Shown here piece after piece: positions 23,051 through 59,845 of a DNA stretch of 64,000 nucleotides. The notes below the pieces were generated by a model. That model did not search any database. It worked only from the letters and a program-made list of their open reading frames with translations, and was not told the origin of the DNA. Position numbers and translations under genes: made by a program. Every line of letters starts with the position of its first letter. Within the stretch, counting starts at the first letter, position 1. The stretch comes from Candidatus Melainabacteria bacterium 17Bon1m (GTDB lineage Bacteria; Cyanobacteriota; Vampirovibrionia; Obscuribacterales; Obscuribacteraceae), in the NCBI GenBank assembly GCA_032128875.1, contig JAVLKG010000003.1:984974-1048973 (forward strand), written 5' to 3'.

Positions 23051-23070
23051 ATTTTATTGAGAGAGAAATC

Positions 23071-23280: not shown

Positions 23281-23291
23281 CCGCCCTTCTT

Positions 23292-23367: not shown

Positions 23368-23371
23368 CTTT

Positions 23372-23447: not shown

Positions 23448-23452
23448 ATTTT

Positions 23453-23525: not shown

Positions 23526-23529
23526 TTAT

Positions 23530-23614
23530 GCAACAGTATCCAAGCTGGCTCAAGGACGCGGCCTGTAAAGTCGTTGGTTAACCCCGGTCATTGGTTCGAA
23601 TCCAATCTGTTGCA
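23530..23614 (+). tRNA. tRNA-Tyr(GTA)
   Basis: GCAACAG/CTGTTGC, GCGGC-CTGTAAA-GTCGT, long variable arm. Confidence 0.88.
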
Positions 23615-23618
23615 ATTT

Positions 23619-23690
23619 TGCCTTGTCGTCTAACTGGTAGGACAGCGGACTTTGAATCCGTTAATGGACGTTCGAACCGTCCCGAGGCAG
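23619..23690 (+). tRNA. tRNA-Gln(TTG)
   Basis: TGCCTTG/CGAGGCA (U1-A72), GCGGA-CTTTGAA-TCCGT. Confidence 0.9.
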
Positions 23691-23711
23691 CTTACTAAAT
23701 CATAGAAATTT

Positions 23712-25179: not shown

Positions 25180-25269
25180 TGGCGGATTGTGAACGATTCG
25201 AACGTTCGGCACCCTCTCGGGAGCGCCCGGTTAGCAACCGAGTGCATTAGACCTCTCTGCCAACAATCC
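25180..25269 (-). tRNA. tRNA-Ser(GCT)
   Basis: GGATTGT/ACAATCC, CTCGG-TTGCTAA-CCGGG, long variable arm, GCCA end. Confidence 0.92.
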
Positions 25270-25270
25270 A

Positions 25271-25348
25271 TGGTTGCGAGAGGTTCGATTCGAACGAACG
25301 ATCTTTGGGATATGAGCCCAACGAGATAGACCACTTCTCTACTCCGCA
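25271..25348 (-). tRNA. tRNA-Met(CAT), initiator-like
   Basis: TTGGG-CTCATAT-CCCAA with three G-C pairs; CGCAACCA end; one extra base in the acceptor stem. Confidence 0.82.
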
Positions 25349-25842: not shown

Positions 25843-26497
25843 GAAGCGCAAGCGCGGCAACCCTGACGCCTACCTAGTCCCGCCAGAAATGTGGTGTGGA
25901 CATCCAAAGGCTAACGGCGAGAAATGCCGCGGCTCTCGACTCAAGAAAGAAGACGGATCTCTGACGGAGTATTGCCAGGCGCATGATCCGAAGAAGATCG
26001 CTGAAAAGACGACCTTGAAGGACAAGGCAGAAGAAGCCAAACAGGCAGCCTTAACTTTGATTGAGACGCCTATTAGAACGCTCCATGACGTTGTTGCCAC
26101 TGCTGATTGGGCGCTTCGATCAATGCTGTCCGGTGAAATCACAATTGGTCAAGCCAATTCAGTCGGATTCTTATTGGACAAAGCTCAGAAGGCGATGGTA
26201 TCAGCCAAGAAATTGGATCCGAAGGAAATCGCCAATCGTGAATTTACTCGAGAAGCAGCAATTGAGGCAGCGCGGAAATTAACAGTTGCCGACGCTCGCC
26301 AGGTGGCAGCCCGCCGAAATATGCACTTGCTAGAAGATGCAGCTTATAAGCAGCCGGAAATCAAGGTTCTCACGATCGAGGCTGCCCAAGAGAAGGTTAA
26401 TCAATTGGTACCGCGCACGGTGGCAGAAGATAAGAGAGAATCAGAATCGTTGGACGTGGTGGAGATAGATCAATCAAATGAAAGTACAGAAATATAG
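25829..26497 (+). CDS. Putative terminase small subunit
   Basis: N-terminal CGHPKANGEKC...YCQAH Zn motif followed by helical region; position at start of late genes. Confidence 0.45.
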   Translation: MVYIKKRKRGNPDAYLVPPEMWCGHPKANGEKCRGSRLKKEDGSLTEYCQAHDPKKIAEKTTLKDKAEEAKQAALTLIETPIRTLHDVVATADWALRSMLSGEITIGQANSVGFLLDKAQKAMVSAKKLDPKEIANREFTREAAIEAARKLTVADARQVAARRNMHLLEDAAYKQPEIKVLTIEAAQEKVNQLVPRTVAEDKRESESLDVVEIDQSNESTEI

Positions 26498-27095
26498 TCA
26501 AGATTCAGTTATGAAAGCGCCTGCAGAATTGCAGGAAGCGCGCATGGTCAAGCTCGAAGAAGAGCTATCAAAAATCAGCCGAAGTCTTCAGACCTTGATG
26601 GCAGCCGAATATCCGGAAGGCGAAAATGTCGAACTCCAATTGGTTCACCTTGGCGATGTATATCTTTCGGATGAAAACAACTGCGCGGTTCACGCTGGAT
26701 TCAACGGCAGACTAAGCGGCTGGCTTTTATATTCAGAAGATATCGAAGATTTGACCGAACTGGTTGAATTCGTTTCAAGTCAATACTTTGAGAAGCAGCA
26801 TTTTCACAAGATTGAAGCTGAACCATTGAGCAGTAATGGACAGGTGATTGTTGCTCTTGAATCGGCTGGATTTACAAAAGTCGGCATCAGAAAAATGAAT
26901 AGATTGATTGGCAATCGCTGGGTGGATACGCTCCTAATGGAGAAATTGAATCCGGCTCTAACTGAATCGCCGGTCGAAACAATCGAAATTAAGAAACAGG
27001 ATGAAGGGGAGCTTCCGGTTCTAAACGAACAAGGAGAGGAAGCTAAATGTTCGGAACTGCCCCAGGCCCCCAGGTCAGTAACAACCCTTACCTAA
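26478..27095 (+). CDS. GNAT (RimJ/RimL-like) acetyltransferase-like protein
   Basis: HKIEAEPLSSN...LESAGFTKVGIRK...WVDTLLMEKL. Confidence 0.7.
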   Translation: MKVQKYSQDSVMKAPAELQEARMVKLEEELSKISRSLQTLMAAEYPEGENVELQLVHLGDVYLSDENNCAVHAGFNGRLSGWLLYSEDIEDLTELVEFVSSQYFEKQHFHKIEAEPLSSNGQVIVALESAGFTKVGIRKMNRLIGNRWVDTLLMEKLNPALTESPVETIEIKKQDEGELPVLNEQGEEAKCSELPQAPRSVTTLT

Positions 27096-27700
27096 ACCAA
27101 CAGCAAAGATACATGATGATGTTGCTGGGTGACTCGATGTTGCCTAGCAACCTTCAATTAAGACCCAATCTTGGACAGGCGGAAGCTGCCCGGGCGCGAT
27201 CTGACGTGATGCGCTCGACGGTTAATCCTCAAGTCGCTGATTTAACGGTCAAATTCGGCGCCAATGGTATGGGGAATAGCACGTTTGCCGCGGCTAGAAG
27301 CGCAGCGCTGCAAGCTGAAGGCGCGCGCATGGCTGAAGATGCAGCGCAAGACGCGATGGATCGCGCATACAACAGAACGATGGCTGCCAGAAGTAGCTAT
27401 TTCAACGGTGAAGGCGGACTGGCAAGCGGAACTACTGAAGGCGCTTTGGCGGAAGAGGAAAGGCAGCGCCAGGAACGTGAGCGCAGAATGGAGCGCTACG
27501 GGCAATTTGGGCAAGCCGGTTTAGGTTTGCTCCAGGCAGGATTCCGACCAACCTACAATCAGCCTTATCCCGGTGGCCCTGTTGCTCAGGGTCCAAGTAT
27601 CTTTTCACAATTTGGATCTGGTGTTTCCCAATCTCCGTTAGGAGCGCTGGGCCGTTTCGGTGCTGGCGTTATTAACGGAATGTTCGGGAGCCGATTCTAA
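27047..27700 (+). CDS. Putative internal virion/ejection protein
   Basis: G/A/Q-rich, GANGMGNST motif, C-terminal Gly-rich amphipathic segment. Confidence 0.55.
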   Translation: MFGTAPGPQVSNNPYLNQQQRYMMMLLGDSMLPSNLQLRPNLGQAEAARARSDVMRSTVNPQVADLTVKFGANGMGNSTFAAARSAALQAEGARMAEDAAQDAMDRAYNRTMAARSSYFNGEGGLASGTTEGALAEEERQRQERERRMERYGQFGQAGLGLLQAGFRPTYNQPYPGGPVAQGPSIFSQFGSGVSQSPLGALGRFGAGVINGMFGSRF

Positions 27701-28821
27701 TGTTTGGCGGTGGATTCGGAACAGCGCCCGGTGGGCGCCCTCTCGGCTCATATCAATTTGGCGCAAGCGGTGTAACCGGTGGCGGTTACATCAATTGGCT
27801 TGATGGGTCGAATTCGCTAGTTGATTTGTATCGCCAGAAAGTAGCGGCTAGCGAACAGGCTTGGCGTGATGGCAAGATCACTAATCCTAATGAGATGCAA
27901 TCGCTCAGAGATTCTTTGAAGCGATGGGAAGATATTCAATCAAATCGCGGCGTCACTCCGCAAATCTTCGCACTGCCGGAATACAGTACGGATAACTTCT
28001 TTACTGAAGCCAATGAAGCTTCGCGCCTTCCTGGTATGGGCGGGCAGGTTAGAGCGGATGCAGTTGAAGCAACCCTTCCTGAAAGTCTTCGTGGTCAGAA
28101 TCGAGGTCAATTGATGCGACCTTGGACAGCGACCGGATTGGTCGACAGTAATTTTGGCAGCGGGTCGGAAGGAAATTATGTAGCCGGCGGCATCGCCAGG
28201 AATATGTCTACGACCGCGCCAACCGATCCAAACCGGGTGAGCGCTTTCGGTGGAGCTTATAACGGTGGCGATTTACGATCTGCTAGCCAGTTTGGAAGCT
28301 ATCAATCTCCGCTTCTGCGCGGTGGTGATGCTCATGGCGCAGTCGCGCGCGTGACACCAAATTGGGGCGGAAGCACAACCAATCCATTTCAGAACCAAAG
28401 CGGAAATCTTTCAAATCCTTCCCCGCTGTGGGATCAGCCGCGCGACTCTGGACCGCGATTTGACGACAATGGAAGATCTTCGCGTCCTGGCGGTGGTTAT
28501 ATTCAAAACACACCAAACGGACCATATGAAGTTGATAGATTCGGTAATCGTTTATCGTCCGGAATGCAATCAAGCACATTTGGCGCTATGGCGATGCCTT
28601 ATGGTGGTCCTTCGACTGTTGATTACAGGAAGCAGCCTGATTTTAGTCCGCGATATATGGGACCGTACAGCCAAGCTTATTACAACAATGCGATGAATTC
28701 AGCCGCAATCTATGGCGGTTTGCTTGGCAGCGGTAACGGATATTCAGCCAGTCCGAGCGCCTACTATCAGCCCGGACAGGGCATTTTCAACAATGACTTC
28801 AATCGAAGAGGCGGATTCTAA
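27700..28821 (+). CDS. Putative internal virion/ejection protein (low complexity)
   Basis: G/S/N/Y-rich 373 aa, TAATG-coupled. Confidence 0.5.
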   Translation: MFGGGFGTAPGGRPLGSYQFGASGVTGGGYINWLDGSNSLVDLYRQKVAASEQAWRDGKITNPNEMQSLRDSLKRWEDIQSNRGVTPQIFALPEYSTDNFFTEANEASRLPGMGGQVRADAVEATLPESLRGQNRGQLMRPWTATGLVDSNFGSGSEGNYVAGGIARNMSTTAPTDPNRVSAFGGAYNGGDLRSASQFGSYQSPLLRGGDAHGAVARVTPNWGGSTTNPFQNQSGNLSNPSPLWDQPRDSGPRFDDNGRSSRPGGGYIQNTPNGPYEVDRFGNRLSSGMQSSTFGAMAMPYGGPSTVDYRKQPDFSPRYMGPYSQAYYNNAMNSAAIYGGLLGSGNGYSASPSAYYQPGQGIFNNDFNRRGGF

Positions 28822-30545
28822 TGTACTCAACTAGATCGAATGCAAGCCCTCTTAAACCAATGGATTTCTTCGCGCCGCCGCTGATTCCAAAGGTTGATCA
28901 ATATCGACCAGAGCCAAAGACTTTGGGATTTGGAACTCTGCCAAGTCCTAAGCCAATGCCTGTTGGAATTTCTGATCAGATTTACGGACTGCCAATTGGT
29001 ACCAATGGAAACTATGAACGCCAGTATTCGACGGCTGATGAACTTCTAGGAAGAGAACCAATCTTGGAGCCTCCGCCTAGACCAGCGGGAATGCATTCAG
29101 CCTGGCAAGAAGGGCCCGATCCTTCTTACATGCCTTCGCGCGGACGCGGGCAAGTGCCGGCAGGCTATGACAAAGAAGCCTGGCTTGAACAAGGTTTACT
29201 GGTTCCAATTGAAGAAGTTCAAAGACAACAACAAGAGCTTTTGAGGCAGAAACAAGAAGGAGCCAATAGAACGGCAGCGATGCAAGGCGCTCCAATGGGC
29301 GCCGATGACGGAAGCTTGGTAAATCTTGATGATTTCCAGGTTCCGCAACGTCAGCCATTCATGCCGGATCCGAATGATCCAATTGCAAGATTTGGTCAGC
29401 CGCCTGTGCCGGCGCCTGGAAATCCGTACATCAACGGCGGTCAAATGCCCTATCCAGGCGGTATGTCCGGTCCGCACATGCAAGGTCGGATGCAAAACAT
29501 CCTTGATGAAATGTTGACTCGCCAACAATACGGCCGTCAATACAATGACATGCAACTGCAGCGCGATCAGTACGATGACGGCTGGGACAGAGCCCGCGCG
29601 GATATCCTCAATCCTCTCATGGGTGGCTTGATGGGTGGTCGCGGCATGGCAGCGATGACCGCTGATTCAAACAATCGCAGAAATCAAATCATGGATCGCC
29701 GGCAGTTGAGACGCCAGTCGATGACAGATCAGTGGGGACAAACCAAAGATCTGATCAGCATGATTGCAGCTAATGATCCGCAAACGATCAAGAATCAGAA
29801 CATGCTGGCGAAAACCCAGAATGACTATATGCAGAAGATCATCAATCAGCAAAATGCGAACACGAATCAATTCAGTTCGCAAAGTAACGCACAGTACAAA
29901 TCCCGTATGGCTACAGTAGCCGAAAGCAAGGCCGCCACCGCTGCCAGCAACCTTCAACGATTGATCAGCGAAGGCGCTGACAGAAGCCAACGTGGCTGGG
30001 CAATGATCGAATCAAATCGTTCTAAATGGGAATCTTCGCTGGAAATGCGCGGAATGGAACTTGAGCAACGCAAGGCGCAAGCCGCTGCCTCAAACGATAT
30101 CCGAATGATGGCATTGATCCAAAAAGATGAAGCCGATTTGGCAAAAGAGCAGATCGCATATGACAAGATGAGCGCAGATCTTGAATCGAAAGCGGCTGAG
30201 GTAGACAAGAATGGAGCGCCAAAGCGAAGCGCTGAATTCGTTGATAAATACGGAACTAAGGCAGCGCCTGGTAAAGAACCAGCGCCACAGCAGAATCAAG
30301 CCGCGGATATCATCAACGCGCTTGGAGGATTTTTCCAGAGAGTCGCAGGAGGAAACCAACAGAGTGGCACAACAGCGCCAGCTCCGAAGCCGGTTCCTGG
30401 AAAACAACCAACTAAGCCAGCCGCTCAATCAGCCGGATCCAAACCAATCACGCCGGATGTAGTCCGTATGTTGAAAGCGAAATTTCCAAACGATATGAAA
30501 GCCGCTATGGCGGAAGCTAGGCGCCTTGGATATAGGATCGATTAA
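28821..30545 (+). CDS. Putative internal virion/ejection protein
   Basis: P/Q/M-rich, coiled coil, short C-terminal helical domain ending ARRLGYRID. Confidence 0.55.
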   Translation: MYSTRSNASPLKPMDFFAPPLIPKVDQYRPEPKTLGFGTLPSPKPMPVGISDQIYGLPIGTNGNYERQYSTADELLGREPILEPPPRPAGMHSAWQEGPDPSYMPSRGRGQVPAGYDKEAWLEQGLLVPIEEVQRQQQELLRQKQEGANRTAAMQGAPMGADDGSLVNLDDFQVPQRQPFMPDPNDPIARFGQPPVPAPGNPYINGGQMPYPGGMSGPHMQGRMQNILDEMLTRQQYGRQYNDMQLQRDQYDDGWDRARADILNPLMGGLMGGRGMAAMTADSNNRRNQIMDRRQLRRQSMTDQWGQTKDLISMIAANDPQTIKNQNMLAKTQNDYMQKIINQQNANTNQFSSQSNAQYKSRMATVAESKAATAASNLQRLISEGADRSQRGWAMIESNRSKWESSLEMRGMELEQRKAQAAASNDIRMMALIQKDEADLAKEQIAYDKMSADLESKAAEVDKNGAPKRSAEFVDKYGTKAAPGKEPAPQQNQAADIINALGGFFQRVAGGNQQSGTTAPAPKPVPGKQPTKPAAQSAGSKPITPDVVRMLKAKFPNDMKAAMAEARRLGYRID

Positions 30546-33500
30546 TGCCCTCATTCTCTCAACTCTGGAATCAATCAGAAGACAAGCCGACCAATTCCAA
30601 TTTTGAATCACTTTGGAATCAATCGGAACAACCAGTGGCGCCACCAGCGCCGCCGGATCCTATTCGAATGTTGGCAGGACAGGCGACGCAAGGCGCCGCC
30701 GATCTGCTTGGAGGATTCACCGGGTTTCTGAATGATCACGGGGTTAATACTGAGGCATTTTTCAAACCAGCCCGAACTGCAGCAAGAACACAGAAAGCAT
30801 TGAGCGGCAAGGCTAAAATCTACGCCGCCGAAGCGGGCTTGGCTGACCTTGGCGACGCTGTAATTAATACCCCGGCTGGATTAGTCCAACAGGGATTGGG
30901 AATCGATCCAGCGAAGCGCTGGCGGTCTGATATGGCTGGATTTATTGAAAACTTCCCAGCCGCTAGAGAAGCTAAAGAAATTCTTCCCGAAGCCTTCAAT
31001 TCTTACAAAACGACGGCCGGATTCTTGGCTCCGCTGCCTGGCGGTGGCGTAGCTAAAACCGTTGGCATGGCCGGGAAATATCTCCCGGCTGCCGCCAAAT
31101 GGTCTAAGGCGGTTCAAGCCGGAAGCAAAGGAGCGCAGATCGCGGATCTCGCCGCCACTGGTGGCGCTATTGGTGGCGTCATGTCTGTCGGTTCTCAAGT
31201 CAAAGAGAATCGAAATATCGATCCAATTGAAACTTTAGCTTCTGCCGGATTAGGCGCAGCTCTTGGCGGTGGACTTGGCGCCGCGGCTCATGGCGCGGGC
31301 GCTGCATTTGAGAAGCTATGGAACAAGGTTCCAAGAAAACAAACGCCGGCGGCACAGGTTAATCAAGAGGTTTCCGGTCAAATCCTTCCGCGTGAAGGAC
31401 CGATGAACGCCAATGAAATGGAAAACATTGGCATGATCGATCGTGCAGCCCTTGATCCTGAAGATGTGGCGGCGCTTGATCAACTCCAAGGGAAAGCGGC
31501 TGAACCAGCCGTAGTACCAGAAGTTTTACCAACTGAAAAGCCGCGCGTATCAATGCCGCTGAATAAAGCTCAAGAAGGATTGGTTCCTGTTGAGCCGCCT
31601 ATGGATTTCACGCCGCCCGGCAAGCCAAAAGTGGCTATGCCTCTAGAGGATGCAATGGCAGGCGTTCAAGGCGAGCGCCGCGGAATCCTGCAAGTCGACG
31701 AAAACGGCAAACAGATTCTTGGTCGTGATCGGGTCGGCATGGCTCCGGGAATTGAGACATTCTCTGACAATGTTTTACCGCCCGAGCTTCGCGCGCTCAA
31801 GATGGAATATGCCAAAGCGAAAGCTGAGAACGCCTATCATTCTGACCAATTGAATCAGATCAATGAAGTCTTGATTGATCGATTCGGAGCTAACGGCGAA
31901 GCCAAGCTAGGACCGTTTAAGCTGACCCGTGTTCCTGGACAGCGTGAACTAAATAAAGCCGGCGAAGACCTTAAGTATCGAGTCAAGGCACAAATCGATC
32001 AAGAATTGCCCGCATATATTGAAACCAACCGCAAGGGTGGTGGAATCAGAGCGACGCTGGATGAAGCTTCGATCAACAAAATGCCAAAGGCTGTTGTTCC
32101 GGAAGGAATCACTGAAGCCGAAGCGATCGCAATGCTTGAAAAATATCATTCACTTTCTCAAGCCGCTGCAGAACGTCAGAAACAAGTCAGAGCGATGTTC
32201 AATGGTGAGAATGGCGAAGACGCGATCTTGTTGGCTCAACAAAGATTGAGAGATGAATTAGGCGATCCCAATGCCAGCCTTCAATCCAATATTCCTGTTC
32301 TCGGTCCTGATGGTCAAGTCTATAACGTATTGGTCGAAGCGCAGAATCCGCGGCAAGAAATGCCACTACTCTGGGAGCAATTCAAGAAAGCCAAGAAAGA
32401 AGAAATTGGTCCTCGCGGCGGAAAGAACAAAGTCCCGCAAACTGAAGAGGAATTCTTTGGCGACTATGCGGAGAAGATGGGAATCGACACGCCATATAAA
32501 GCATTGGCTGATCAAGCCCGCGCGGGATTCCAACGCCTTCAGGATGAAATCGCTCAGGCGCTAGCCAAGCCGCAAACTAGCCGAATGGCATCCGACAAAA
32601 TTAAGATTGCTAGAACTGCTCAGCTTGTCGGTGGTCTGGCTGGATTCGGCGCGATGTCTCTTGATCAAGGAGCGCAGGCCGCCGGCGTAACTGATAATCG
32701 AGGTAACCCGATCATTGGATCTGGAACGCTTGTTGGCGGAGCCCTCATCATGGCAAGCTTGGCACATAGATTTGGACCGCAAGCGATCAGGAATTTTGCT
32801 AAATGGTCAGGCGCTCATGCAGCTTCGATCTACAAAGACACACTTGATCATATCGATCAGCTTGATAAAGTCATGGCAACGATCAATCCGTCAACCCTGT
32901 CGCCTGCAGCCCAAAAGGTGTTAAGCAAAGGAAACAAGCTCAACGGCAAGACCTTGGCTCGAAATATCTGGGAGCACAACGCCGCGGCTGTCATGTCGAA
33001 TTGGGGTGTTGATTGGTCGAAGAGCGCTAAAGGCGCTAAATGGGATGGTCAAGTTACCAAAGCTAGATCTCTGGCATTGTTGAGATCCAGGCAGGTCACC
33101 AGCGCTGAAGCGCTCCGCGGTAAAGCGGGAACGCTATTCGAAGACATGACGCAGCAACAAAGAGATGCCGCGGTTGGTTACTTCCTGAATCAGAAGACCC
33201 TTTCACAGAAAGTAAATCGCTTTGAAGCTGAGATGAAAGCCGCTGGAATTGCGCAATTGGCACAGGTTGATCCGAATGTCAAAAATGCTCTGGCCGCATT
33301 CAGTTATCTGAAAGATGCAGTAGCCCCAACCAGCCGCGCCTTCGAAGATGGCTTGGTTGATGCTTATCACAAAGGTCTATCCAATGCGATGGACTTCTAT
33401 TTCTTCATGAATCCTAAACACCATCTATTGAACCTGACTGATAGCTTCATTGGTGGCGGTGGAAGAGTGGGAGCCACGCGGATTGCCCGCGCCTGGCAAT

Positions 33501-34702
33501 GGTTGGCCGCCGACAAAGATATTCAGAAAGTATTCGCTGATTCAAATATTGTTGGATCATGGCGAGCGGAACAAACAAATCTGGCAGCCAAGAACGCGAC
33601 CAGTAAAGCTCTATTCGAACATGATTTTCCATCTGATCGAGTCAATGCCAATCGCGTCGCTCTTGGATCGCTGATTCAATATGCGGAAGATAACGCCGCC
33701 AGAATGAATCAAGCTGGATTCAAAGGCGATTCAAAGCAGTTTGTTAAGGAGCTATTCCAGGGGAATCTAGATCCTAGTTTGTCGATGGACGCAGGCGTTC
33801 ACATGGTTGAAACCCTGAGCCGGACTCTTGGAGTAGATCCATATCGAGTCAATACCGATTGGTTAAGCCGTCAAAAATTCTCAAGCTCATTGGGTGTTTT
33901 CGTCAAACAGCCGGCCAGAATTTCGCGCCTTGCGTTTACGTACGCAAAAAATGGTGAGTATGGAAAGCTGGCAACAATGCTTGGAATGATGGCTTTCTTT
34001 GGCGGCTCCGCCGTTCTTCCAATCGAACTTAAGAAGGTTTGGGAAAACGTTGATCCAAACAGCTACTTCCAAGTTGCTGGAGCGCTTGATCGATACAATC
34101 CATATTCAATGATTAGTGGTCAGAACGCCAGCAAAAAGCTGCAATGGGGAGTTAACCCGATTGGCATGACGACAACCAACCCCGCATGGACAACAGCGTA
34201 TGGCATGGCTGAAGATGTCGCTGAACTATACGGCGCATACACCAAACTGGCTGCTGTTCCTGGTGGTGTTTTTGAAGGGATGACCAGTCCACGAACCCAA
34301 GGCGAGCGCTCACAGATCGCCAGCAAGCTTCAAAAGTTCATCGGTGGTTTGACTCAAATTGTTTTGAATCGATTGCCAGGCAATATTCCAACCGGTGAAA
34401 CCACTCGCCTATGGAAGCAGCTCACGCCGGCGGTAACCGGTCAGACTGATATCACCTATTATCGAGACGGCGAGAATCGCCCATATCATCCGAAAGAAGA
34501 AGGCGTTCCGCTCAATAGACTTGGAATGAATAATTTCAATCCGGTATTAAATGCGGTACTACCTGGTGAGATGTCTGGCGTATATCAAAATCAAAATGGT
34601 GTCCTTGAACAGAAGGTCAGACAAGATCGCCGCCAGCGTGTACCAGCCGACCAATTGGGCTATCACGATCCTCTGATGCGGCAGCTTGCAACGCGTCGAT
34701 AA
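30545..34702 (+). CDS. Largest internal virion/ejection protein
   Basis: 1385 aa; N-terminal repeats FSQLWNQSE/FESLWNQSE; Gly/Ala-rich membrane-like segments typical of podovirus DNA-transfer proteins. Confidence 0.65.
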   Translation: MPSFSQLWNQSEDKPTNSNFESLWNQSEQPVAPPAPPDPIRMLAGQATQGAADLLGGFTGFLNDHGVNTEAFFKPARTAARTQKALSGKAKIYAAEAGLADLGDAVINTPAGLVQQGLGIDPAKRWRSDMAGFIENFPAAREAKEILPEAFNSYKTTAGFLAPLPGGGVAKTVGMAGKYLPAAAKWSKAVQAGSKGAQIADLAATGGAIGGVMSVGSQVKENRNIDPIETLASAGLGAALGGGLGAAAHGAGAAFEKLWNKVPRKQTPAAQVNQEVSGQILPREGPMNANEMENIGMIDRAALDPEDVAALDQLQGKAAEPAVVPEVLPTEKPRVSMPLNKAQEGLVPVEPPMDFTPPGKPKVAMPLEDAMAGVQGERRGILQVDENGKQILGRDRVGMAPGIETFSDNVLPPELRALKMEYAKAKAENAYHSDQLNQINEVLIDRFGANGEAKLGPFKLTRVPGQRELNKAGEDLKYRVKAQIDQELPAYIETNRKGGGIRATLDEASINKMPKAVVPEGITEAEAIAMLEKYHSLSQAAAERQKQVRAMFNGENGEDAILLAQQRLRDELGDPNASLQSNIPVLGPDGQVYNVLVEAQNPRQEMPLLWEQFKKAKKEEIGPRGGKNKVPQTEEEFFGDYAEKMGIDTPYKALADQARAGFQRLQDEIAQALAKPQTSRMASDKIKIARTAQLVGGLAGFGAMSLDQGAQAAGVTDNRGNPIIGSGTLVGGALIMASLAHRFGPQAIRNFAKWSGAHAASIYKDTLDHIDQLDKVMATINPSTLSPAAQKVLSKGNKLNGKTLARNIWEHNAAAVMSNWGVDWSKSAKGAKWDGQVTKARSLALLRSRQVTSAEALRGKAGTLFEDMTQQQRDAAVGYFLNQKTLSQKVNRFEAEMKAAGIAQLAQVDPNVKNALAAFSYLKDAVAPTSRAFEDGLVDAYHKGLSNAMDFYFFMNPKHHLLNLTDSFIGGGGRVGATRIARAWQWLAADKDIQKVFADSNIVGSWRAEQTNLAAKNATSKALFEHDFPSDRVNANRVALGSLIQYAEDNAARMNQAGFKGDSKQFVKELFQGNLDPSLSMDAGVHMVETLSRTLGVDPYRVNTDWLSRQKFSSSLGVFVKQPARISRLAFTYAKNGEYGKLATMLGMMAFFGGSAVLPIELKKVWENVDPNSYFQVAGALDRYNPYSMISGQNASKKLQWGVNPIGMTTTNPAWTTAYGMAEDVAELYGAYTKLAAVPGGVFEGMTSPRTQGERSQIASKLQKFIGGLTQIVLNRLPGNIPTGETTRLWKQLTPAVTGQTDITYYRDGENRPYHPKEEGVPLNRLGMNNFNPVLNAVLPGEMSGVYQNQNGVLEQKVRQDRRQRVPADQLGYHDPLMRQLATRR

Positions 34703-34759: not shown

Positions 34760-35158
34760 ATGCCCAAAGGCAAATCAAATGAAATCAAAGAAGAAGGCGC
34801 CGAAACAAGCGCCGATGCAAATCGACCCAATAGCCAAGAAAATGTCAAACAAGGCAATGTTCGGGATGAAGCCGAAGGCGGGCAAGAAAGCCTGTCGCTA
34901 GTTGGCGCTGAAATCAAACCGCGCAAGGGGATGACGGTTTATTTCATTAGGGGTAGAGAAGTCAGCCCAGCCCTCGTTTTGAATGTCGTGAAGGATCAGG
35001 TCATTGATCTGAACTATCAGAGCATTCATACGCCAGGACGCTGTGTGACGATGCTCAAAGTTGAAAAAGGATTGAAAGCTGGTCAGTGGTGGCCTGACCT
35101 CGACGAGTCAGAGGCCGCGCTAAAACTTGAATTCTCCAAATGCTTCGCTGTCTCCTGA
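34760..35158 (+). CDS. Hypothetical phage protein
   Basis: PRKGMTVYF...PALVLNV small beta domain. Confidence 0.55.
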   Translation: MPKGKSNEIKEEGAETSADANRPNSQENVKQGNVRDEAEGGQESLSLVGAEIKPRKGMTVYFIRGREVSPALVLNVVKDQVIDLNYQSIHTPGRCVTMLKVEKGLKAGQWWPDLDESEAALKLEFSKCFAVS

Positions 35159-36818
35159 GCAGATTCTAGAAATGGTGGCTCAAGAAGCCGCCGTTGAAGC
35201 AATCCAATGGGAACAGAATAGACAAGATAGAGCAATCAAAGACCGGGCAGAACTAACTGTTCGCTGTGCTTATTCGCTGGAAGAGCGCGCCGCGGAGCTC
35301 GTACTTTGCCGCGAAGATATTTTTCACTGGTTAGATAACTGGTGTTGGATTGAAGAGCCGCGCGCCGATGTCCAAGAAATCCCATTCTTAAGATACGACT
35401 TCCAGACCGAATTCATTCAATGGGTGGTTGATAACGTCGCTGAAACTCTCGGCACGATCAAGAAGAAAACCCTATTGATTGAGAAATCCCGGGACATGGG
35501 GGTTAGCTGGACGTTAATCGCCGTCGCTGTCTGGTACTGGCTATTCCACAACAGATCATCTCTATTTGGATCAAGAAAAGCTGAATTAGCCGACAAATTG
35601 GGCGACATGAAAACCTTGCTGGAAAAAGCAAGATTCATCATCCGCCGACTTCCTGAATGGATGTGGCCGATCGGATTTGACCAGAAAGAAGATATGGGTC
35701 ACAACCTGATCAAGAACCCCAACGGTGGCGCGATTACCGCTGAAGCCAGTTGCGTCGACTTCGGACGGGGGGACAGAAAACTTTTCATTGTCCTGGACGA
35801 ATTTGCCAGTTGGCCGTATGACGACGCTGCAGCAAAATCAGCCGGCGGATCTTCATCTGTCCTGATTTTCGTATCAACTCCGAAAGGACCATATAACAAG
35901 TTCGCCCGGATGGCTCGAGGCGAAGACGACGTTACACCACTGATCAAAACACTGCATTGGACGCAGCACCCGATCAAAGCGGCTGGAATGTCGATGGATC
36001 ACGCAGGTAAACCGACTAGCCCTTGGTACCGCGAGCAGTGCAATTCAGGAACATTCTCAGCCGATGACATCGCTTCAGAATTCGATCTGAACTATGCGCA
36101 TTCGACCAAAGGACTTGTATTCCCGGACTATGTAGCCAATTGGCACAGAATGAAACTAATTCCGGATGAAAGATCCCCGATCATTCGGGTTTGGGATCCT
36201 GGAGTTAAGACATTCTATGTTCTCTTTTGCCAGGTCGATAAAGACCGCCGGATTCTTTGCCTTGATGAAGTCTGCATTACAGACGCCAATCTACACGATG
36301 TAGCGCAAGAAGTTTTGAGAGTCAGCAATGAACGCTTCAGGCGTTTCAATTTCCTGGACTGTGGCGACCCTGCTGGATCCAGAATCACTAACTCGCTGCA
36401 AGAATCGCCCGAGTTTGAAACGCTACGTGATGAATATGACATTGATATTGATGTGTCATTCATGGACGGAATGCGATCTGATTTGAAGGTCAAATCAAGA
36501 ATCACAGCGATTCACAACAAGCTCAGAGAGCTGAACGCCAGAACCAATACACCCGGTTTATTGATTGACCATGAGCGATGCCCCACGCTTGATAGGGCAA
36601 TGCTCGAAGGCTACCGATACAAGGTAGACAAGCACACGAAACGTGTTTCGGAAATTGTCGATGAAGAACACCCTTGGGAAGATGCGGTTGACTGTCTTGG
36701 TATGGGAATCCTATACAAACTCGGTCTTGGTACCAACAAACAAGGTAGCAAGAAAGTTGAGATTGAGAAGAATGTCATTCGTTGGCCCGGTCAAATGAGG
36801 CGCCAAAGAATTGTTTGA
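35127..36818 (+). CDS. terL: Terminase large subunit
   Basis: Walker A EKSRDMGVSW, Walker B IVLDEFA, VSTPKG, nuclease WDPG, CGDPAG, HPWEDAVDC. Confidence 0.92.
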   Translation: MNSPNASLSPEQILEMVAQEAAVEAIQWEQNRQDRAIKDRAELTVRCAYSLEERAAELVLCREDIFHWLDNWCWIEEPRADVQEIPFLRYDFQTEFIQWVVDNVAETLGTIKKKTLLIEKSRDMGVSWTLIAVAVWYWLFHNRSSLFGSRKAELADKLGDMKTLLEKARFIIRRLPEWMWPIGFDQKEDMGHNLIKNPNGGAITAEASCVDFGRGDRKLFIVLDEFASWPYDDAAAKSAGGSSSVLIFVSTPKGPYNKFARMARGEDDVTPLIKTLHWTQHPIKAAGMSMDHAGKPTSPWYREQCNSGTFSADDIASEFDLNYAHSTKGLVFPDYVANWHRMKLIPDERSPIIRVWDPGVKTFYVLFCQVDKDRRILCLDEVCITDANLHDVAQEVLRVSNERFRRFNFLDCGDPAGSRITNSLQESPEFETLRDEYDIDIDVSFMDGMRSDLKVKSRITAIHNKLRELNARTNTPGLLIDHERCPTLDRAMLEGYRYKVDKHTKRVSEIVDEEHPWEDAVDCLGMGILYKLGLGTNKQGSKKVEIEKNVIRWPGQMRRQRIV

Positions 36819-38820
36819 GAAACTTCGATTTATCCAATCCAACATTCCCCCGGTAACCTCCGATTACTGGAAGGAACCGGCACAACAGCTATACAACCAA
36901 TATAAGTACTTCGAAGAAGCCAGCCTAGATCTAAGAACAAATATTTGGCCCGCTTGCGCGCGAGCTTATTTCTGTCGCCGGCAATTGCCAGACAATGAAG
37001 GTATGGATTGGGCAAACGGATCCGATCTGGGTGAAACGGATATTTGGGATTCCGTTAACTATGCGGGCGACGCGCTATCCTTGGCGCTCTTCCCTCGCGA
37101 CCAATCTTATCTAGAACTGCTCAGCCAATACGAAGAAGATCAAGGCCTGTTGAATGACATCAGAGATCTTCTGATGATGTATCACCGGCAAGCTGACACC
37201 CGCGGTCAGTATGCGCGGCACATCAAACAGATGCTTATCTATGGAACGTCGGCTATCCGCTGGACGTGGCGCACGATTGAAGATCACAAGCAATTCCCGC
37301 CAACTGAAACTTTGCGCCGACTGTTGGAAGAAGGTGTTGAATTAGATCCGCTCGAAGACATCACCAAAACATATAAGAAGTATAAATTCCCGGTTAAGAC
37401 CTTCAACGGTCCTGTTATCCAGCCGGTCGATATGTACGACTTGTTTTTGGATCCTGCCGCTGATCTTTCCAATGAACACAAAACGGCAATCATTCAGCGT
37501 CTCTATTTGACGCCAGAAGAAATCGAACACGCCGAAGACGAGAACGGCGAGAAACGTTATTCGAATACAGACGGCATTGAACCAATGTCGCTTGAACAAA
37601 TCTATGGACAAGAATCAGAACGCCTTGAACTGGTAACTGAACTTGGATTGAATCCGATTGCCGCTGGCAATAGTTCAAAGAAGCTTGTTCCTGTTTACGT
37701 TTTTCACCAACCAGTGAGGAAATTTGACGGTGACAGCCATAAGTATGTCGACACCTATTTTTACCTGGCACTCAGCAACAGCCAAGAGCAATTCAAACTC
37801 ATTCGAGTCGAAGACAACCCCAACAGTCAGCTTGGCGGCCAGCGTACTGGAAGTAGGGGATTATATATTGACTCTTACGTGGATTGGCTTTCTGGTGCTT
37901 ATGGAATTGGCGCAGTTGAGAAATCCCTTTCCGCGTATGAACAGAAAAACGTAGTCGCGGCGCTCGGTCTGAACGCTCAATTGGCTTCCGTTTTCCCGGC
38001 ATACACCGTCATTGGTGGCGTGCTGCAGGACGATGCAAAGCTAAAAATGGCGCCCGGATCAATCAATGTGATCAACTATAAGCCGGCTATTGGAACTAAT
38101 TTCATTGCCCCTGTGCCAGCTCCAATCGGAACGGTTCAGTTAGGTATGCAGGCTGAACAATGGTATGGTCAAAAGATCGTTGGTCAATTCCAAGCCTACG
38201 GCGCTGCCGCTCAAGATCCAACCAAGTCGATCAAGACTGCAAAAACCGCAACTGAAATCAACACGCAGTCAACGACCGGATCTGTGATGAGAGATAACCT
38301 CTTGGAAAAAATCACGACCAGATCAGTTGAGCCGCTATTTCAAGACATCTATGAAGCTGCCCGCCTGTGGGTTGATGATATCAACACGTTTGAGAAATCA
38401 GCCGATGGCGATGGACGATTGGGTTCAGTTCAAAAGATGGATCTGGATCGCGACCGCCGCGTTATTTGTACCGGATTCCATGGACAAATGAATAAAGCCA
38501 AGGAAATTGAAGAACTGCAGAACGCTCTGCAAATCATCACGACCGGCAACGCGCTTGAACAGCTTCCGACCTTGCGCCCTGTCCTTCAGGATCTTGTATT
38601 CAAATTGCTGGGCCGCTTGGGCGTCAAGAATTTGGAGCAATACAAAGCTGATCCAATGCAGCTAATCATGAACGATCCAAATGTTCAGATGATGATCGAG
38701 CAAGAAATTCAGAAACGAATTGCCCAGTTGACAGGTCAGCCCGCGGTACCATCACCACAAGAAGGACCGCCACCAGGGGCGGTACCACCTGAAATGATGG
38801 GAGCCCAACAGGCAGCATGA
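36811..38820 (+). CDS. Portal protein
   Basis: 669 aa after terL; MLIYGT, DLFLDP, YGIG, KTATEI; Q/P-rich tail. Confidence 0.85.
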   Translation: MFEKLRFIQSNIPPVTSDYWKEPAQQLYNQYKYFEEASLDLRTNIWPACARAYFCRRQLPDNEGMDWANGSDLGETDIWDSVNYAGDALSLALFPRDQSYLELLSQYEEDQGLLNDIRDLLMMYHRQADTRGQYARHIKQMLIYGTSAIRWTWRTIEDHKQFPPTETLRRLLEEGVELDPLEDITKTYKKYKFPVKTFNGPVIQPVDMYDLFLDPAADLSNEHKTAIIQRLYLTPEEIEHAEDENGEKRYSNTDGIEPMSLEQIYGQESERLELVTELGLNPIAAGNSSKKLVPVYVFHQPVRKFDGDSHKYVDTYFYLALSNSQEQFKLIRVEDNPNSQLGGQRTGSRGLYIDSYVDWLSGAYGIGAVEKSLSAYEQKNVVAALGLNAQLASVFPAYTVIGGVLQDDAKLKMAPGSINVINYKPAIGTNFIAPVPAPIGTVQLGMQAEQWYGQKIVGQFQAYGAAAQDPTKSIKTAKTATEINTQSTTGSVMRDNLLEKITTRSVEPLFQDIYEAARLWVDDINTFEKSADGDGRLGSVQKMDLDRDRRVICTGFHGQMNKAKEIEELQNALQIITTGNALEQLPTLRPVLQDLVFKLLGRLGVKNLEQYKADPMQLIMNDPNVQMMIEQEIQKRIAQLTGQPAVPSPQEGPPPGAVPPEMMGAQQAA

Positions 38821-52767: not shown

Positions 52768-53061
52768 CTATTCTTCCTCCAAGGTTGCCATCACTTCTCT
52801 TTCTGACAGAATCAAATAATCGATTCCTCTAACTTTGACTTCCATTCCTGAATGTTTCGGGAACAGAACGACTTGATCGACTTTGATCAAGACAGGTTGG
52901 ATCGATCCATCTTCCATCCGTCGACCAGGACCGACCGCCAGAACCTTACCCTGCTGCGGCTTCTCTTTCCCTTGATCCGGTAGAAAAATGCCGCCTGGTG
53001 TCATTTCTAGAATGTCGGATTTCTTGATGACGATTCGATCTTGTGTTGGAATTACTTTCAA
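52768..53061 (-). CDS. groES: Phage-encoded co-chaperonin GroES
   Basis: PTQDRIVI, TPGGIFLPD..KEKPQQGKVLAVGPG, YLILSERE. Confidence 0.93.
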   Translation of the reverse strand: MKVIPTQDRIVIKKSDILEMTPGGIFLPDQGKEKPQQGKVLAVGPGRRMEDGSIQPVLIKVDQVVLFPKHSGMEVKVRGIDYLILSEREVMATLEEE

Positions 53062-57006: not shown

Positions 57007-57645
57007 CTAAGCGACTTCTGTTAATGACTTCAATCGCAATGCAATTGTGTTCTTGTATTCAACCAAGTGATCTATTTCTTGCATAATCAAAGATTGAGCT
57101 TCCCCATCTTTGCGAATGCCAAACTTGTCGCATAAGCGATCAATAAACTTGCCGCATGAAGCGATAGTCGCTGCCTGTTGTTCATTCTTTACAGAAAGAA
57201 CCTTGTTGTTCTCCAACGATTGCTGAAGTGCTACTTCAAGACCTTGAGCCTTGTTTGTTGCATTCGCGAGCTCTTTCCCCAGCTTGTCTTCACTGCAAAC
57301 AATTTCGAGCAGAGCAGATCGGACCAGTTGCTTACAAAGCAATGCTTGCTCTTCTGTTGCCACCAATGGCACATCCGAGACTGTCGCGACTTCAAATCTC
57401 TTTTGCTTTACTGGCGTACCGAGAAAATATGACTCGAGCAGCTCCGCAACTTTCGAAGTCAATCCCTTGTACTTCTTTGTTTTACGTTCAAAACGTTCCG
57501 CCGCTTCCTTCCATGTCGTGCAGCCAGCAAGCATATTGAAATCAAATATGCGCACAGCACAACACATGATTGGATGCCAATTAGTCATGTTCGGGTAGCC
57601 ATTCTTTCTAAGAAAGCCAAGAAAACCATTTCTATCAAATTGCAT
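57007..57645 (-). CDS. Hypothetical protein, first gene of the leftward operon
   Basis: 212 aa, C-terminal coiled coil; GGAG RBS. Confidence 0.6.
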   Translation of the reverse strand: MQFDRNGFLGFLRKNGYPNMTNWHPIMCCAVRIFDFNMLAGCTTWKEAAERFERKTKKYKGLTSKVAELLESYFLGTPVKQKRFEVATVSDVPLVATEEQALLCKQLVRSALLEIVCSEDKLGKELANATNKAQGLEVALQQSLENNKVLSVKNEQQAATIASCGKFIDRLCDKFGIRKDGEAQSLIMQEIDHLVEYKNTIALRLKSLTEVA

Positions 57646-57661
57646 AGATTCTCCACAGCAA

Positions 57662-57744
57662 AGCCAACCCTGCCAAAAGAACAGGCATGGATGAATATCG
57701 CCGAGGAATAGGCGATCACGCCTGCCCTTCAGACAAGATTGGCT
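57662..57744 (-). promoter_or_regulatory. Long leader RNA hairpin
   Basis: AGCCAATCTTGTC/GGCAGGGTTGGCT, GAAGGG/TTCTTT, CAGGCGTG/CATGCCTG, ATCGCC/GGCGAT; complete only with G:U pairs on the minus strand. Confidence 0.7.
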
Positions 57745-57763
57745 ACATTCGACTTAAGACCCT

Positions 57764-57783
57764 TGCCACCAGATTCGGTATCA
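57764..57783. promoter_or_regulatory. Operator-like palindrome
   Basis: TGCCACC-AGATTC-GGTATCA. Confidence 0.65.
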
Positions 57784-57865
57784 GCAAAACATTACCGAGT
57801 GATAACGCGGACAATCTTACAAGGGGTTGAAAGATGTTTCAATCACTTCACATCAAACTCGATGA

Positions 57866-58162
57866 TTACTTGCCTTTAACATCTGCTTCGTTCCACAGCT
57901 TTTCGAAGTTGCCGACCCGCTTTTCGAGTACTGGGACAGGCTGAAGAACCTGTTGACCTTCGGCATTCTGTACGACCTGCCACATATCCCCTGTATAGGA
58001 ATCAAGCAAAAAACGATCAGCCCGAGTTAATGGGCTGATCGAAAAATGAAACCGCTCTTTGTTTACGGTTGGTTGATTTTGTCGGCTATAGAACTGATAG
58101 GCGATTAATCCAATAACAACCAACATTGCTATCGATATCAATCTATCTGGATCTAGTTTCAT
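57866..58162 (-). CDS. Single-TM membrane protein, superinfection-exclusion candidate
   Basis: N-terminal TM, small beta domain, C-terminal NFEKLWNE; directly behind the HTH gene. Confidence 0.65.
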   Translation of the reverse strand: MKLDPDRLISIAMLVVIGLIAYQFYSRQNQPTVNKERFHFSISPLTRADRFLLDSYTGDMWQVVQNAEGQQVLQPVPVLEKRVGNFEKLWNEADVKGK

Positions 58163-58164
58163 AG

Positions 58165-58419
58165 CTAAGAAGCCATAACTAAATCAGAAAACCCCTCCAT
58201 GATTTCAACCGCCGACAGCCCAGTTAAAGCGCTGAGCTTCTTCGCGTTCGGAAGTGTCGGCACTCGCCCATCAAAAGCATATGTATCCAATGTCGAACGA
58301 GCGAGGTCGTGACCAGTTTCAAGCGCAAGCTTGGATAGGTCTGTTAACGTTTCGCACTCTGCCAATTCCAGCAGTCGCGTCATAAACGGATGCATTTCTT
58401 TGGATGATTTGCCTGCCAT
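58165..58419 (-). CDS. XRE-like HTH regulator (repressor candidate)
   Basis: LARSTLDTY..DGRVPTLPNAKKLSALTGLS. Confidence 0.75.
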   Translation of the reverse strand: MAGKSSKEMHPFMTRLLELAECETLTDLSKLALETGHDLARSTLDTYAFDGRVPTLPNAKKLSALTGLSAVEIMEGFSDLVMAS

Positions 58420-58440
58420 GCCCTACCCTCTTCCTTGAAT

Positions 58441-58469
58441 AGAATATATCCTGTATATTGAGCTGACAA
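58441..58469 (-). promoter_or_regulatory. Sigma70-type promoter for HTH/membrane-protein pair
   Basis: TTGTCA-17 bp-TATTCT on the minus strand. Confidence 0.5.
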
Positions 58470-58493
58470 CCAGTTGACACTGGATTTAAAACC

Positions 58494-58535
58494 TGGAGCG
58501 TACCGGGGTCGAACCGGTGACCTCTTCAATGCCAT
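58494..58535. repeat. attR: 42-bp direct repeat
   Basis: Identical to 14320-14361; ends exactly at the anticodon loop. Confidence 0.97.
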
Positions 58536-58566
58536 TGAAGCGCGCTACCAACTGCGCTAACGCCCC
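58494..58566 (-). tRNA. tRNA-Ala(GGC), host, integration target
   Basis: GGGGCGT/ACGCTCC with G3:U70, CTTCA-ATGGCAT-TGAAG, GTTCGAC T loop. Confidence 0.96.
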
Positions 58567-58672
58567 GTCAGGAAGTGGTTATACCATAAACGCTTTAGGA
58601 AGGCACGCAAAGGCAAGGTGAGCCTTAACGGAATGAATTTTGCAGCAAACCAGGCGATGTATCGCTTCGCCC

Positions 58673-59845
58673 TTAAGCTTTGCGGCTAATTTCCACAGGC
58701 GTTACGAGTTCGCCTAGTTCATTTATTTGCGCTTCAGAATTGGACGCTGAAGGGCAGGTTCCGCAGCCGGCGCCTTGATTAGTCCCGCTCATAGGGTTGG
58801 CCGGCAGTTTTGCAATTGCTTTGTCTTTACTACCGGGCAGCATCCTTGTCAGGTTGAGTCCTGTTCTGGCTTCAACGTACTGTTTGGCTTTTTCCTTGCC
58901 CCAGCGCAATTTGCTCTTCACATTGAGAAGGAAATATTTGTCGGGCGGCCACAAGAACGAAGTCTCGAAATAACACCAAATAGTGCATCCCTGGCAAAAG
59001 TCCCACGAACCTTCTTCCGATCGTTTCTTCTGCACCGGTGGGCTTCGCCACAGCTCATCCAGGTTGGAGCGACCGTTTTCGTGTTTGATCTTCAGCCTTT
59101 CATCGTGCATGTGATAGCACGGCAAGAGCAGATGATCGTCAGGTGAGATAACTATGGTTGATGAAACCGCCCGGCAGCGCGGGCTTTTGACCTGATTGCC
59201 GCCATTCAGGTAAAACTCGAGAAACGCCCAGTTAACACAGACATTGTCGAATTTAGCCAGTCTTTGAAGTTCTTTGATGCCTTCTTTGTGCAGCAATTCG
59301 TTGCCGCAGAAATCGAAGACCGGTCCTAGAAGCACTACGACGCCCAATTCTTGCGCCAGCCTGATGACAGGTTCCATGCCCCAGATAGATTCTTGCGTCG
59401 CCGTGGCAATGATAGATGGGCGCTCGCCAAGGCTGCGTGCAAGCTTTAAGCTTTCAACAACTTTGTCGTATCCGTCGATGCCGCGCTCAGCCTTGTATTC
59501 ATCTCGATCTGTGGTTGAAAGCGAGAATTTCAAATCGTCGACCAGTCCGACAAGTTCTTTTGCCATGCGCGGATAGAGTGTTCCGGTGTTGGCAAGGCTG
59601 GTGAAGAACCCCATTGCTTTGGCTGCCCGCAAGACTTCCGGCAAGTATCTGTAGATAAGCGGTTCGCCACCGGTGAAATCAAGAACTTTCACACCCAGAC
59701 GTTTGAGCGCTGCCAGGTTTTCAATGATTGTCTCTGGCTGACTTTCTTTGATGCGAATGTTTTCCGGCTTAATAGGAATGTCGCAATAGGTGCAGCGCGA
59801 ATTGCACTTATAAGTGAGGTAATAGTTGGCAAGGATAGGCGGCAC
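58673..59845 (-). CDS. Radical SAM/SPASM-type protein
   Basis: CNSRCTYC, FTGGEP, C-terminal PC ... CQGCTIWC. Confidence 0.9.
   Translation of the reverse strand: MPPILANYYLTYKCNSRCTYCDIPIKPENIRIKESQPETIIENLAALKRLGVKVLDFTGGEPLIYRYLPEVLRAAKAMGFFTSLANTGTLYPRMAKELVGLVDDLKFSLSTTDRDEYKAERGIDGYDKVVESLKLARSLGERPSIIATATQESIWGMEPVIRLAQELGVVVLLGPVFDFCGNELLHKEGIKELQRLAKFDNVCVNWAFLEFYLNGGNQVKSPRCRAVSSTIVISPDDHLLLPCYHMHDERLKIKHENGRSNLDELWRSPPVQKKRSEEGSWDFCQGCTIWCYFETSFLWPPDKYFLLNVKSKLRWGKEKAKQYVEARTGLNLTRMLPGSKDKAIAKLPANPMSGTNQGAGCGTCPSASNSEAQINELGELVTPVEISRKA

Follow-up and report, generated by a model that had tools for sequence, protein, structure and literature searches.

The 64-kb stretch of DNA that we analyzed (the window) comes from the genome of Candidatus Melainabacteria bacterium 17Bon1m (7.55 Mb in 35 contigs; this genome and its phage are called G000 below, and comparison genomes or regions G001, G002, G003, and so on) and contains a 44.2-kb prophage. 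Close to the right end of this element lies a minus-strand gene (57866-58162) for a 98-amino-acid (aa) protein that is predicted to be a bitopic membrane protein and ends in ...VGNFEKLWNEADVKGK, so that its C-terminal tail carries the peptide NFEKLWNEAD (core F-x-x-L-W-N; 57881-57910, minus strand, in the translated open reading frame, or ORF). The same core is found three times in a 1385-aa protein encoded on the plus strand (30545-34702) in the virion module, upstream of the terminase and portal genes: as SFSQLWNQSE (residues 3 to 12, 30551-30580) and NFESLWNQSE (residues 19 to 28, 30599-30628) near the N-terminus, which reads MPSFSQLWNQSEDKPTNSNFESLWNQSE over 30551-30628, and as AFEKLWNK (residues 254 to 261, 31304-31327) directly after a Gly/Ala-rich hydrophobic stretch. 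The first-pass annotation of this DNA had pointed out these peptides and proposed that the small protein excludes related phages by mimicking a protein that the phage ejects. Its coordinates and peptides were all correct, including NFEKLWNE at 57887-57910 and FEKLWN at 31307-31324, as was its count of three synonymous differences between the two FEKLWN-coding segments (TTC GAA AAG CTG TGG AAC in the small gene versus TTT GAG AAG CTA TGG AAC in the large gene), which argues for selection on the peptide and not on the DNA.

Across its six reading frames, the window contains the pattern F..LWN five times, namely, as the four copies described above and once in a non-coding frame. The amino-acid frequencies of the prophage predict 0.029 occurrences for its remaining 77 ORFs (12,801 aa), at least one occurrence was seen in 49 of 2,000 shuffles of these proteins, and the corresponding expectation for NFE.LWN is 8e-5. 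Across the six frames of the whole 7.55-Mb genome, F..LWN is found 43 times, while F..[LM]WN[QE][SAN][ED] is found 3 times, namely, in the two N-terminal copies of the large protein and in the small protein; since this pattern for the 10-residue peptides was written after all three copies had been seen, its rarity is somewhat overstated. In an unbiased BLOSUM62 comparison of 9-residue segments, the large-protein N-terminus matched the small protein with a score of 41 in the window and 44 in G001, a related IMG/VR genome (44,993 nucleotides [nt], with terminal repeats) that is syntenic with the window phage throughout. The next-best match of the large-protein N-terminus within its own genome scored 29, and cross-genome controls, which excluded the related pair G000 and G001, scored 23 to 40, the top ones being glycine runs. 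The motif of the small protein matches the second copy in the large protein at 7 of 10 residues, and F, L/M, W, and N, which would lie on one face of a helix, are invariant in all eight copies of the window and G001. Thus, the sharing of the motif is real and not due to chance.

The start codon of the 98-aa protein is backed by the conservation of residues 1 to 12 in its orthologues. An AlphaFold2 model of this protein (12-row alignment, mean predicted local distance difference test [pLDDT] score of 72) contains a helix at residues 5 to 28, four strands at residues 38 to 42, 50 to 54, 60 to 65, and 71 to 76, and a short helix at residues 86 to 92 over the motif. The first helix (58079-58150, minus strand), a predicted membrane helix or signal anchor, coincides with a hydropathy peak of 2.0 over residues 6 to 26; it is the only membrane helix predicted by either approach, in line with the single transmembrane segment of the first-pass annotation, and anchoring in the cytoplasmic membrane is correspondingly a prediction. 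The pLDDT falls below 50 at residues 81 to 85, 90 to 92, and 94 to 98, and confidence this low over most of the tail indicates that the tail is not docked on the beta-domain. In the model, the motif-bearing tail is therefore a flexible helix unpacked from the domain, as would be expected of a linear motif.

The four-stranded beta-domain (residues 38 to 76; 57935-58051, minus strand) was assigned with HMMER to a family of small exported proteins with the signature RAD.FLLD..TG..WQ. An exhaustive HMMER search identified 46 representatives at an E value of ≤1e-3 among 1.84 billion, with similarity over residues ~30 to 80. Beyond the protein's own cluster, these relatives are remote and mostly 77 to 280 aa long, often with two copies of the domain, and R37, R47, D49, D54, G58, W61, and V64 are invariant in the 12-row alignment. 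An N-terminal hydrophobic segment is present in 40 of 45 relatives, most of which have a typical signal peptide (MKK-hydrophobic-AxA). None of the 45 contains the motif, which indicates that the tail is an addition in the phage lineage. On this comparison, the phage protein belongs to a family of exported domains and has acquired a membrane anchor and a tail with the motif, and since its domain relatives are mostly signal-peptide proteins, the tail and its motif probably face the periplasm. No Pfam family was found in the 13 small relatives that were scanned, Foldseek returned no match to the predicted fold at an E value of ≤1e-3 in the PDB or BFVD, and matches in the Atlas were confined to hypothetical clusters with scores below 0.9. 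Other membrane-anchored homologues of the domain occur in genomes of the host's order: a 115-aa protein with an unrelated tail, encoded next to a tyrosine recombinase gene (L067, 1456-1803, plus strand), and a 201-aa protein with a long, unrelated, Lys/Glu-rich tail (L068, 1432-2037, plus strand). The anchored homologue of G488 has no tail motif in common with any of 103 ORFs across 80 kb (best score, 27).

We searched for orthologues of the small protein in 5.8 billion proteins, 1.84 billion representatives, GenBank phages, JGI metagenomes, and 107 genomes of the order. Including the window's own, three orthologues of the phage type were found, the others being a 101-aa protein identical in G001 and G002 and a protein on a 2.2-kb contig (P0002); the JGI metagenomes yielded none, and 3 of the 107 genomes, G000 among them, had a match. 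A phmmer search of the ORFs from 14 assembled regions with the small protein and with the regulator encoded upstream of it likewise gave matches only in G000 and G001, while the 212-aa product of the next gene matched only in G000. The orthologues are 65 to 66% identical overall and terminate in NFEKLWNEADVKGK, SNFERMWNESKLNGK, and TSFERMWNETKVNGK, with the motif present as NFERMWNE or SFERMWNE in the relatives. The 8 to 11 residues that precede the motif cannot be aligned, and F-E-(K/R)-(L/M)-W-N-E and a final G-K are retained. The first-pass annotation had treated loss of the motif from homologues as grounds for rejecting its proposal; the motif is instead kept in all three, and this pattern indicates that it is under selection in the small protein.

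The neighboring gene (58165-58419, minus strand) encodes an 84-aa protein, with 2 nt between its stop codon and the beginning of the small gene. This protein, previously called a candidate helix-turn-helix (HTH) repressor, is modeled with five helices (pLDDT 87), and its top Foldseek matches are nearly all of the Xre type (the N-terminal domain of TP901-1 CI first, followed by C.BclI, SinR, HigA, and ImmR), at E values of only 0.05 to 1 and TM scores of 0.5 to 0.6. The model thus supports an Xre/CI-type fold, although the Pfam HTH_3 score is below the cutoff (13.9 bits versus 23; E value of 0.055, and 0.061 for the G001 orthologue), and no other HTH family was found among the 81 window ORFs, mostly from the prophage, that were scanned against Pfam. 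This protein may be the prophage repressor or an early regulator. The regulator and small genes are paired in all three lineages (G000, G001/G002, and the third contig). The pair adjoins attR, the right attachment site, in the window and lies ~220 bp from the integrase gene in G001, and what follows it differs, with the gene for the 212-aa protein in the window versus an opposite-strand 340-aa ORF in G001, so the two genes appear to form a conserved module. An exclusion gene behind a regulator at a prophage's immunity end is a familiar layout, as in cI-rexAB of phage lambda. The int-ltp region of TP-J34 is a further example (PMC3952083).

A 6-5-6 palindrome, AATATA CAGGA TATATT (58442-58458), which may be an operator, separates attR from the start of the regulator gene and falls within the single promoter-like site of that interval. 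Across 57600-58700, the counts of promoters, terminators, and repeats were about those expected from shuffled sequence, with no clear terminator behind the small gene, and a 47-aa ORF in the gap (57687-57830, plus strand) had no Pfam family even at an E value of 10.

The element itself is bounded by an exact 42-bp direct repeat, at 14320-14361 (attL core) and 58494-58535 (attR core), the latter copy forming the 3' part of a tRNA-Ala gene (58494-58566, minus strand). Reading rightward from attL, the genes are those for an integrase (14496-15338, plus strand; PHROG 1 at an E value of 3e-54 and Pfam Phage_integrase) and a second integrase-family protein (16021-16689, plus strand; PHROGs and Pfam scans), small genes of unassigned function, a tRNA cluster with an RNA ligase gene, a GNAT gene, and four genes without a known family, followed by the genes for the terminase (35127-36818), an SU10-type portal (36811-38820), capsid, an SU10-type adaptor, tail proteins, and lysozyme, with the terminase and portal likewise assigned from PHROGs and Pfam scans. 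Leftward from the right end, the genes are those for the 84-aa, 98-aa, and 212-aa proteins, Erf, a RusA-like resolvase, and DnaB and then for a GroES-like protein, a sigma-like protein, and a methyltransferase. The PHROGs and Pfam scans of the window ORFs revealed no family of tail tube, sheath, or tape-measure proteins, and the phage is therefore a temperate short-tailed one, as first proposed. This SU10-like temperate podophage is integrated in tRNA-Ala. Relatives of this phage group were absent from the GenBank phages searched. G001 also has both integrase-family genes, the first with no more than 32% identity to its counterpart, a difference that suggests another site of integration.

The four family-less genes (27047-34702) encode proteins of 217 aa (27047-27700), 373 aa (27700-28821), 574 aa (28821-30545), and 1385 aa, all on the plus strand; the first three products are of low complexity and rich in Gly, Asn, and Gln. 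The cluster lies directly upstream of the terminase and portal genes, is syntenic in G001 and G003, and is conserved as a set of four to five genes. Its place before the terminase gene, its low-complexity members, and two hydrophobic Gly-rich segments in the 1385-aa protein (residues 722 to 741 and 1142 to 1162) suggest that the latter is an internal ejected protein of a short-tailed phage, so gene order and composition speak for the first-pass label of ejection protein, while scans of Pfam, PHROGs, and PDB sequences (none at an E value of <0.1) gave it no match. A homologue of the 1385-aa protein was found in 12 of the 107 genomes of the order, including the window's own, but only in the window's own genome among 401 genomes sampled across the phylum; two of the homologue-bearing records are labeled "Candidatus Obscuribacterales."

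At the start of nearly all homologues of the large protein, a short peptide, aromatic or acidic, is repeated in tandem two or three times, and this peptide differs by lineage: SIWDDI/SIWDDL, LVDWNQFD (twice), SFDSFM.EPLD (twice), DDELLAMAQEYGIK (three times), GVDWDAIGG/GIDWNAIGG, SDPYEAAF (twice), and FD..AWL.QGE (twice). These peptides lie at the extreme N-terminus (residues 2 to 12) in most lineages, and extra internal copies of the lineage motif are present in the window, G001, and P0007. When the first 130 residues were shuffled, none of 200 shuffles reached the observed repeat score for 13 of 19 homologues and 1 of 200 did so for one more; the homologues that failed this test are those of G424, G482, G503, P0005, and P0006. 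The 190-aa product of the G003 gene immediately upstream of the large one (L003, 9422-9994, plus strand) starts with MSVWDDLEE and the large protein with MSVWDDIEN, a 9-residue match that scores 43 compared to 23 to 40 in controls. The lineage-specific N-terminal repeats suggest that the peptide is an address or docking peptide, a shared address in the case of proteins that have it in common, and the repeat behaves as short linear motifs typically do when they co-evolve with a binding partner.

Other members of the cluster also have distinctive ends. The 217-aa and 373-aa proteins both start with MFG..TAPG and both end in Phe (..GSRF and ..RRGGF), as do their counterparts in G001, and these ends may serve as separate terminal tags or, at the C-terminus, as a signal of the outer-membrane type. 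The 574-aa family has a conserved tail at its C-terminus (30440-30545; ..DMKAAMAEARRLGYRID in the window and ..QLVEQLKARGYKVGG in G463) that resembles the N-terminal tandem repeats DDELLAMAQEYGIKTK of the large proteins of G470 and G463, so terminal peptides may be exchanged between cluster proteins. The GNAT acetyltransferase gene that heads the cluster (26478-27095, plus strand) is kept in G001, and a gene of similar size has the same place in G003; its product might modify the N-termini of the neighboring proteins.

We consider it possible, with confidence a little short of even, that the 98-aa protein acts as a decoy, anchored in the inner membrane, and shuts out related phages through peptide mimicry. 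Under this proposal, the protein would be made together with the Xre/CI-fold regulator from a two-gene unit next to the att site, in the lysogen or early in infection, and would display its beta-domain in the periplasm with a single amphipathic F-x-x-(L/M)-W-N peptide on a flexible tail. On the largest internal ejection-type protein, which bears this peptide three times and twice at its extreme N-terminus, the peptide would be an address tag that docks the ejected protein to a putative envelope partner, either a component of the conduit or a host envelope protein. The resident, membrane-anchored copy would occupy this partner, so that an incoming phage of the same or a related kind could not finish DNA entry. 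A tail that copies a peptide from the leading end of the ejected protein is most simply read as a competitor for that protein's docking site. A wider proposal, which we hold with somewhat less confidence than the one for this protein, is that phages of this group dock their largest ejected protein through fast-evolving N-terminal address peptides and that, in one lineage, a copy of its own address peptide was grafted to an exported domain of host type and tied to the membrane, which would give exclusion by linear-motif mimicry.

Several results weigh against this interpretation. The charge bias around the membrane helix of the small protein (net 0 in the N-terminal flank and net +2 in the C-terminal flank, where two of the charges belong to conserved positions of the domain) is ambiguous or contrary to a periplasmic tail, and no signal-peptidase site is evident in the protein; the periplasmic orientation of the tail is probable from the exported relatives and is not supported by the charges. 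The small protein has no match in the PHROG, Pfam, NCBIfam, or PADLOC families, and searches of Pfam, PHROGs, NCBIfam, PDB sequences, and GenBank phages gave the 1385-aa protein no match, to known ejection proteins or otherwise. We searched 10 of the 14 regions for the lineage motif with regular expressions and the 9-residue score; G482, G503, G448, and G479 were omitted because their large protein was incomplete, undetected, or without a recognizable N-terminal repeat. For eight lineages (G424, G470, G507, G463, G003, G452, G451, and G473), the 37 to 60 kb searched around the large gene, stretches that may in some cases not span the whole phage, contained no membrane protein that bears the lineage motif. 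The decoy device is therefore not general, and the orthologues of the small protein are confined to one lineage and all have the same motif. The only other case of tag sharing, that in G003, joins two proteins of the virion module and fits an assembly or packaging tag equally well.

Likewise, no binding partner emerged: the sole complex prediction, of the 574-aa protein (5-row alignment) with residues 1 to 60 of the large protein, scored 0.00 and is uninformative either way. In four RNA-labeled runs (X1, X3, X5, and X6), the whole prophage was recovered as one contig of 44,192 nt at a depth of 22, compared to 24 to 26 for the host flank, with the att core as a separate 42-nt contig of double depth. 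Such even, DNA-like depth over the prophage lends no support to expression of the unit, and it makes these runs uninformative on transcription. Runs X5 and X6 also contained a variant that is heavily substituted in the capsid region and whose sequence beyond the att core at 58535 differs.

A second explanation is that the peptide binds a common phage or host partner without any exclusion, for example, by tethering or sequestering that partner at the membrane in the phage's own cycle, with effects on the timing of assembly or lysis, on localization, or on a host envelope protein. The evidence for a shared, conserved motif on a flexible tail applies here equally, and no defense family matches the small protein in PADLOC. 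In addition, the regulator and small genes are co-directional with the early or replication genes for Erf, the RusA-like protein, and DnaB, so they may be an early lytic unit and not a lysogeny unit; early expression suits exclusion too, as with imm and sp of phage T4. Conversely, a protein made after entry is useless for the entry of its own genome, a copy that faces the periplasm has no obvious partner in intracellular assembly, and no lysis or assembly family in PHROGs or Pfam matches the protein. We consider this explanation unlikely.

A capsid-targeting role is less probable still. Here, the N-terminal peptides would load proteins into the procapsid, and the copy on the small protein would either load that protein too or be unrelated to entry. 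The capsid targeting sequence of phage T4 acts in the cytoplasm during assembly and is removed by the prohead protease. It is a short N-terminal peptide common to otherwise unrelated internal virion proteins (PMC3012670), and its form is similar to that of the lineage tags, especially the G003 pair. The position of the tags at the very N-terminus in most lineages and the shared start of the two adjacent G003 proteins fit this role. However, the tag in the window is tandem, recurs inside the large protein at residue 255, and sits at the N-terminus of only one virion-module protein, and the small protein, a membrane protein from an exported-type domain family, carries its copy at the C-terminus and is encoded beside a regulator, outside the virion module. 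In addition, no prohead protease family was found among the ORFs between the portal and capsid genes, an absence of a match that is not proof.

Least probable, and in our view very unlikely, is convergence or chance without a common partner, with an aromatic amphipathic segment (F, L, and W on one face) acting as a membrane-interface or oligomerization element in both proteins. In its favor, no more than four residues of the core are fixed, a hydrophobic Gly/Ala stretch precedes the third copy and the small protein is membrane bound, and two unrelated matches to a looser pattern occur elsewhere in the genome compared to ~1.4 expected (a rough estimate from the 43 occurrences). Against it, the probability is 0.025 to 0.03 when the core is taken by itself and ~1e-4 when the flanking N, F, and E are included, and the 7 of 10 residues shared with the second copy, the retention of the motif in every orthologue despite a diverged linker, and its absence from all 45 remote domain relatives are further evidence against it.

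The remaining features of the window concern the rest of the prophage and its flanks. Eight tRNA genes form two clusters around the RNA ligase gene (24375-25091, plus strand): the first (22977-23691, plus strand) includes Asp, Gly, Cys, Tyr, and Gln tRNAs and one with an odd anticodon loop, and the second (25180-25348, minus strand) consists of Ser and Met tRNAs. These clusters and the ligase could be a module for tRNA supply or repair. The GroES/Cpn10-like gene in the early operon (52768-53061, minus strand; Pfam E value of 2.5e-26) overlaps the longest reading of the DnaB gene, which runs from a GTG start at 54406 to 52946; one of these two assignments may be wrong. In the host flanks, a large RHS-repeat protein is encoded at 242-3502 (plus strand; Pfam E value of 1e-7), and a radical-SAM gene (58673-59845, minus strand) lies just beyond attR. 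A radical-SAM enzyme with an HxS-repeat peptide was reportedly tied, in a 2026 paper, to the blocking of phage DNA entry, and we rejected such a system for this neighbor, as no HxS repeats are present within 58 to 64 kb.

Prophages commonly encode small membrane proteins that block DNA entry, and how these recognize the invader is understood in very few cases. SieA of phage P22 is an inner-membrane superinfection exclusion protein whose escape mutations map to the ejection proteins gp16 and gp20, the same class of target (the ejection-protein conduit) as proposed here, and the part of that source considered does not report a copy of an ejection-protein peptide in SieA (PMC10883804). The 98-aa protein differs from SieA in its single membrane helix, exported-type beta-domain, and mimic tail, and it matched no family in scans of Pfam, PHROGs, NCBIfam, and PADLOC. 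Ltp of the Streptococcus phage TP-J34 acts on the tape-measure protein through a folded domain. Its gene belongs to the lysogeny module next to the integrase gene and is transcribed in the prophage, and the protein blocks DNA injection while tethered on the outer face of the cytoplasmic membrane (PMC3952083). The gene position and the anchored, outward-facing design of Ltp are like those proposed for the small protein. In contrast, Ltp is a lipoprotein of a Gram-positive siphovirus, and peptide mimicry is not described for it in the part of the source considered (PMC3952083).

The gene cluster of the large protein has parallels of the same kind. The ejection proteins gp14, gp15, and gp16 of phage T7 rise in size to ~1400 aa, and the products of the cluster described here rise similarly to about 1400 aa. 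SU10 has five ejection proteins, gp20 to gp24 (PMC9509320), and the window has a cluster of several genes in a structural module with an SU10-type portal and adaptor. We detected neither sequence or profile similarity to the SU10 and T7 ejection sets nor a transglycosylase domain.

Envelope-anchored exclusion proteins are already known, and one that carries the invader's own peptide would be new; exclusion by such copying was not found in a limited search of the literature. If the proposal is true, the specificity of exclusion could be read from sequence, by comparing the tail of the resident protein with the N-terminus of the incoming ejection protein, and would be both predictable and open to engineering. 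The lineage-specific tandem peptides at the N-terminus of 14 of the 19 homologues, which come from uncultured Obscuribacterales-type phages, point toward a short code for docking, amenable to experiment, in the delivery or packaging of DNA.

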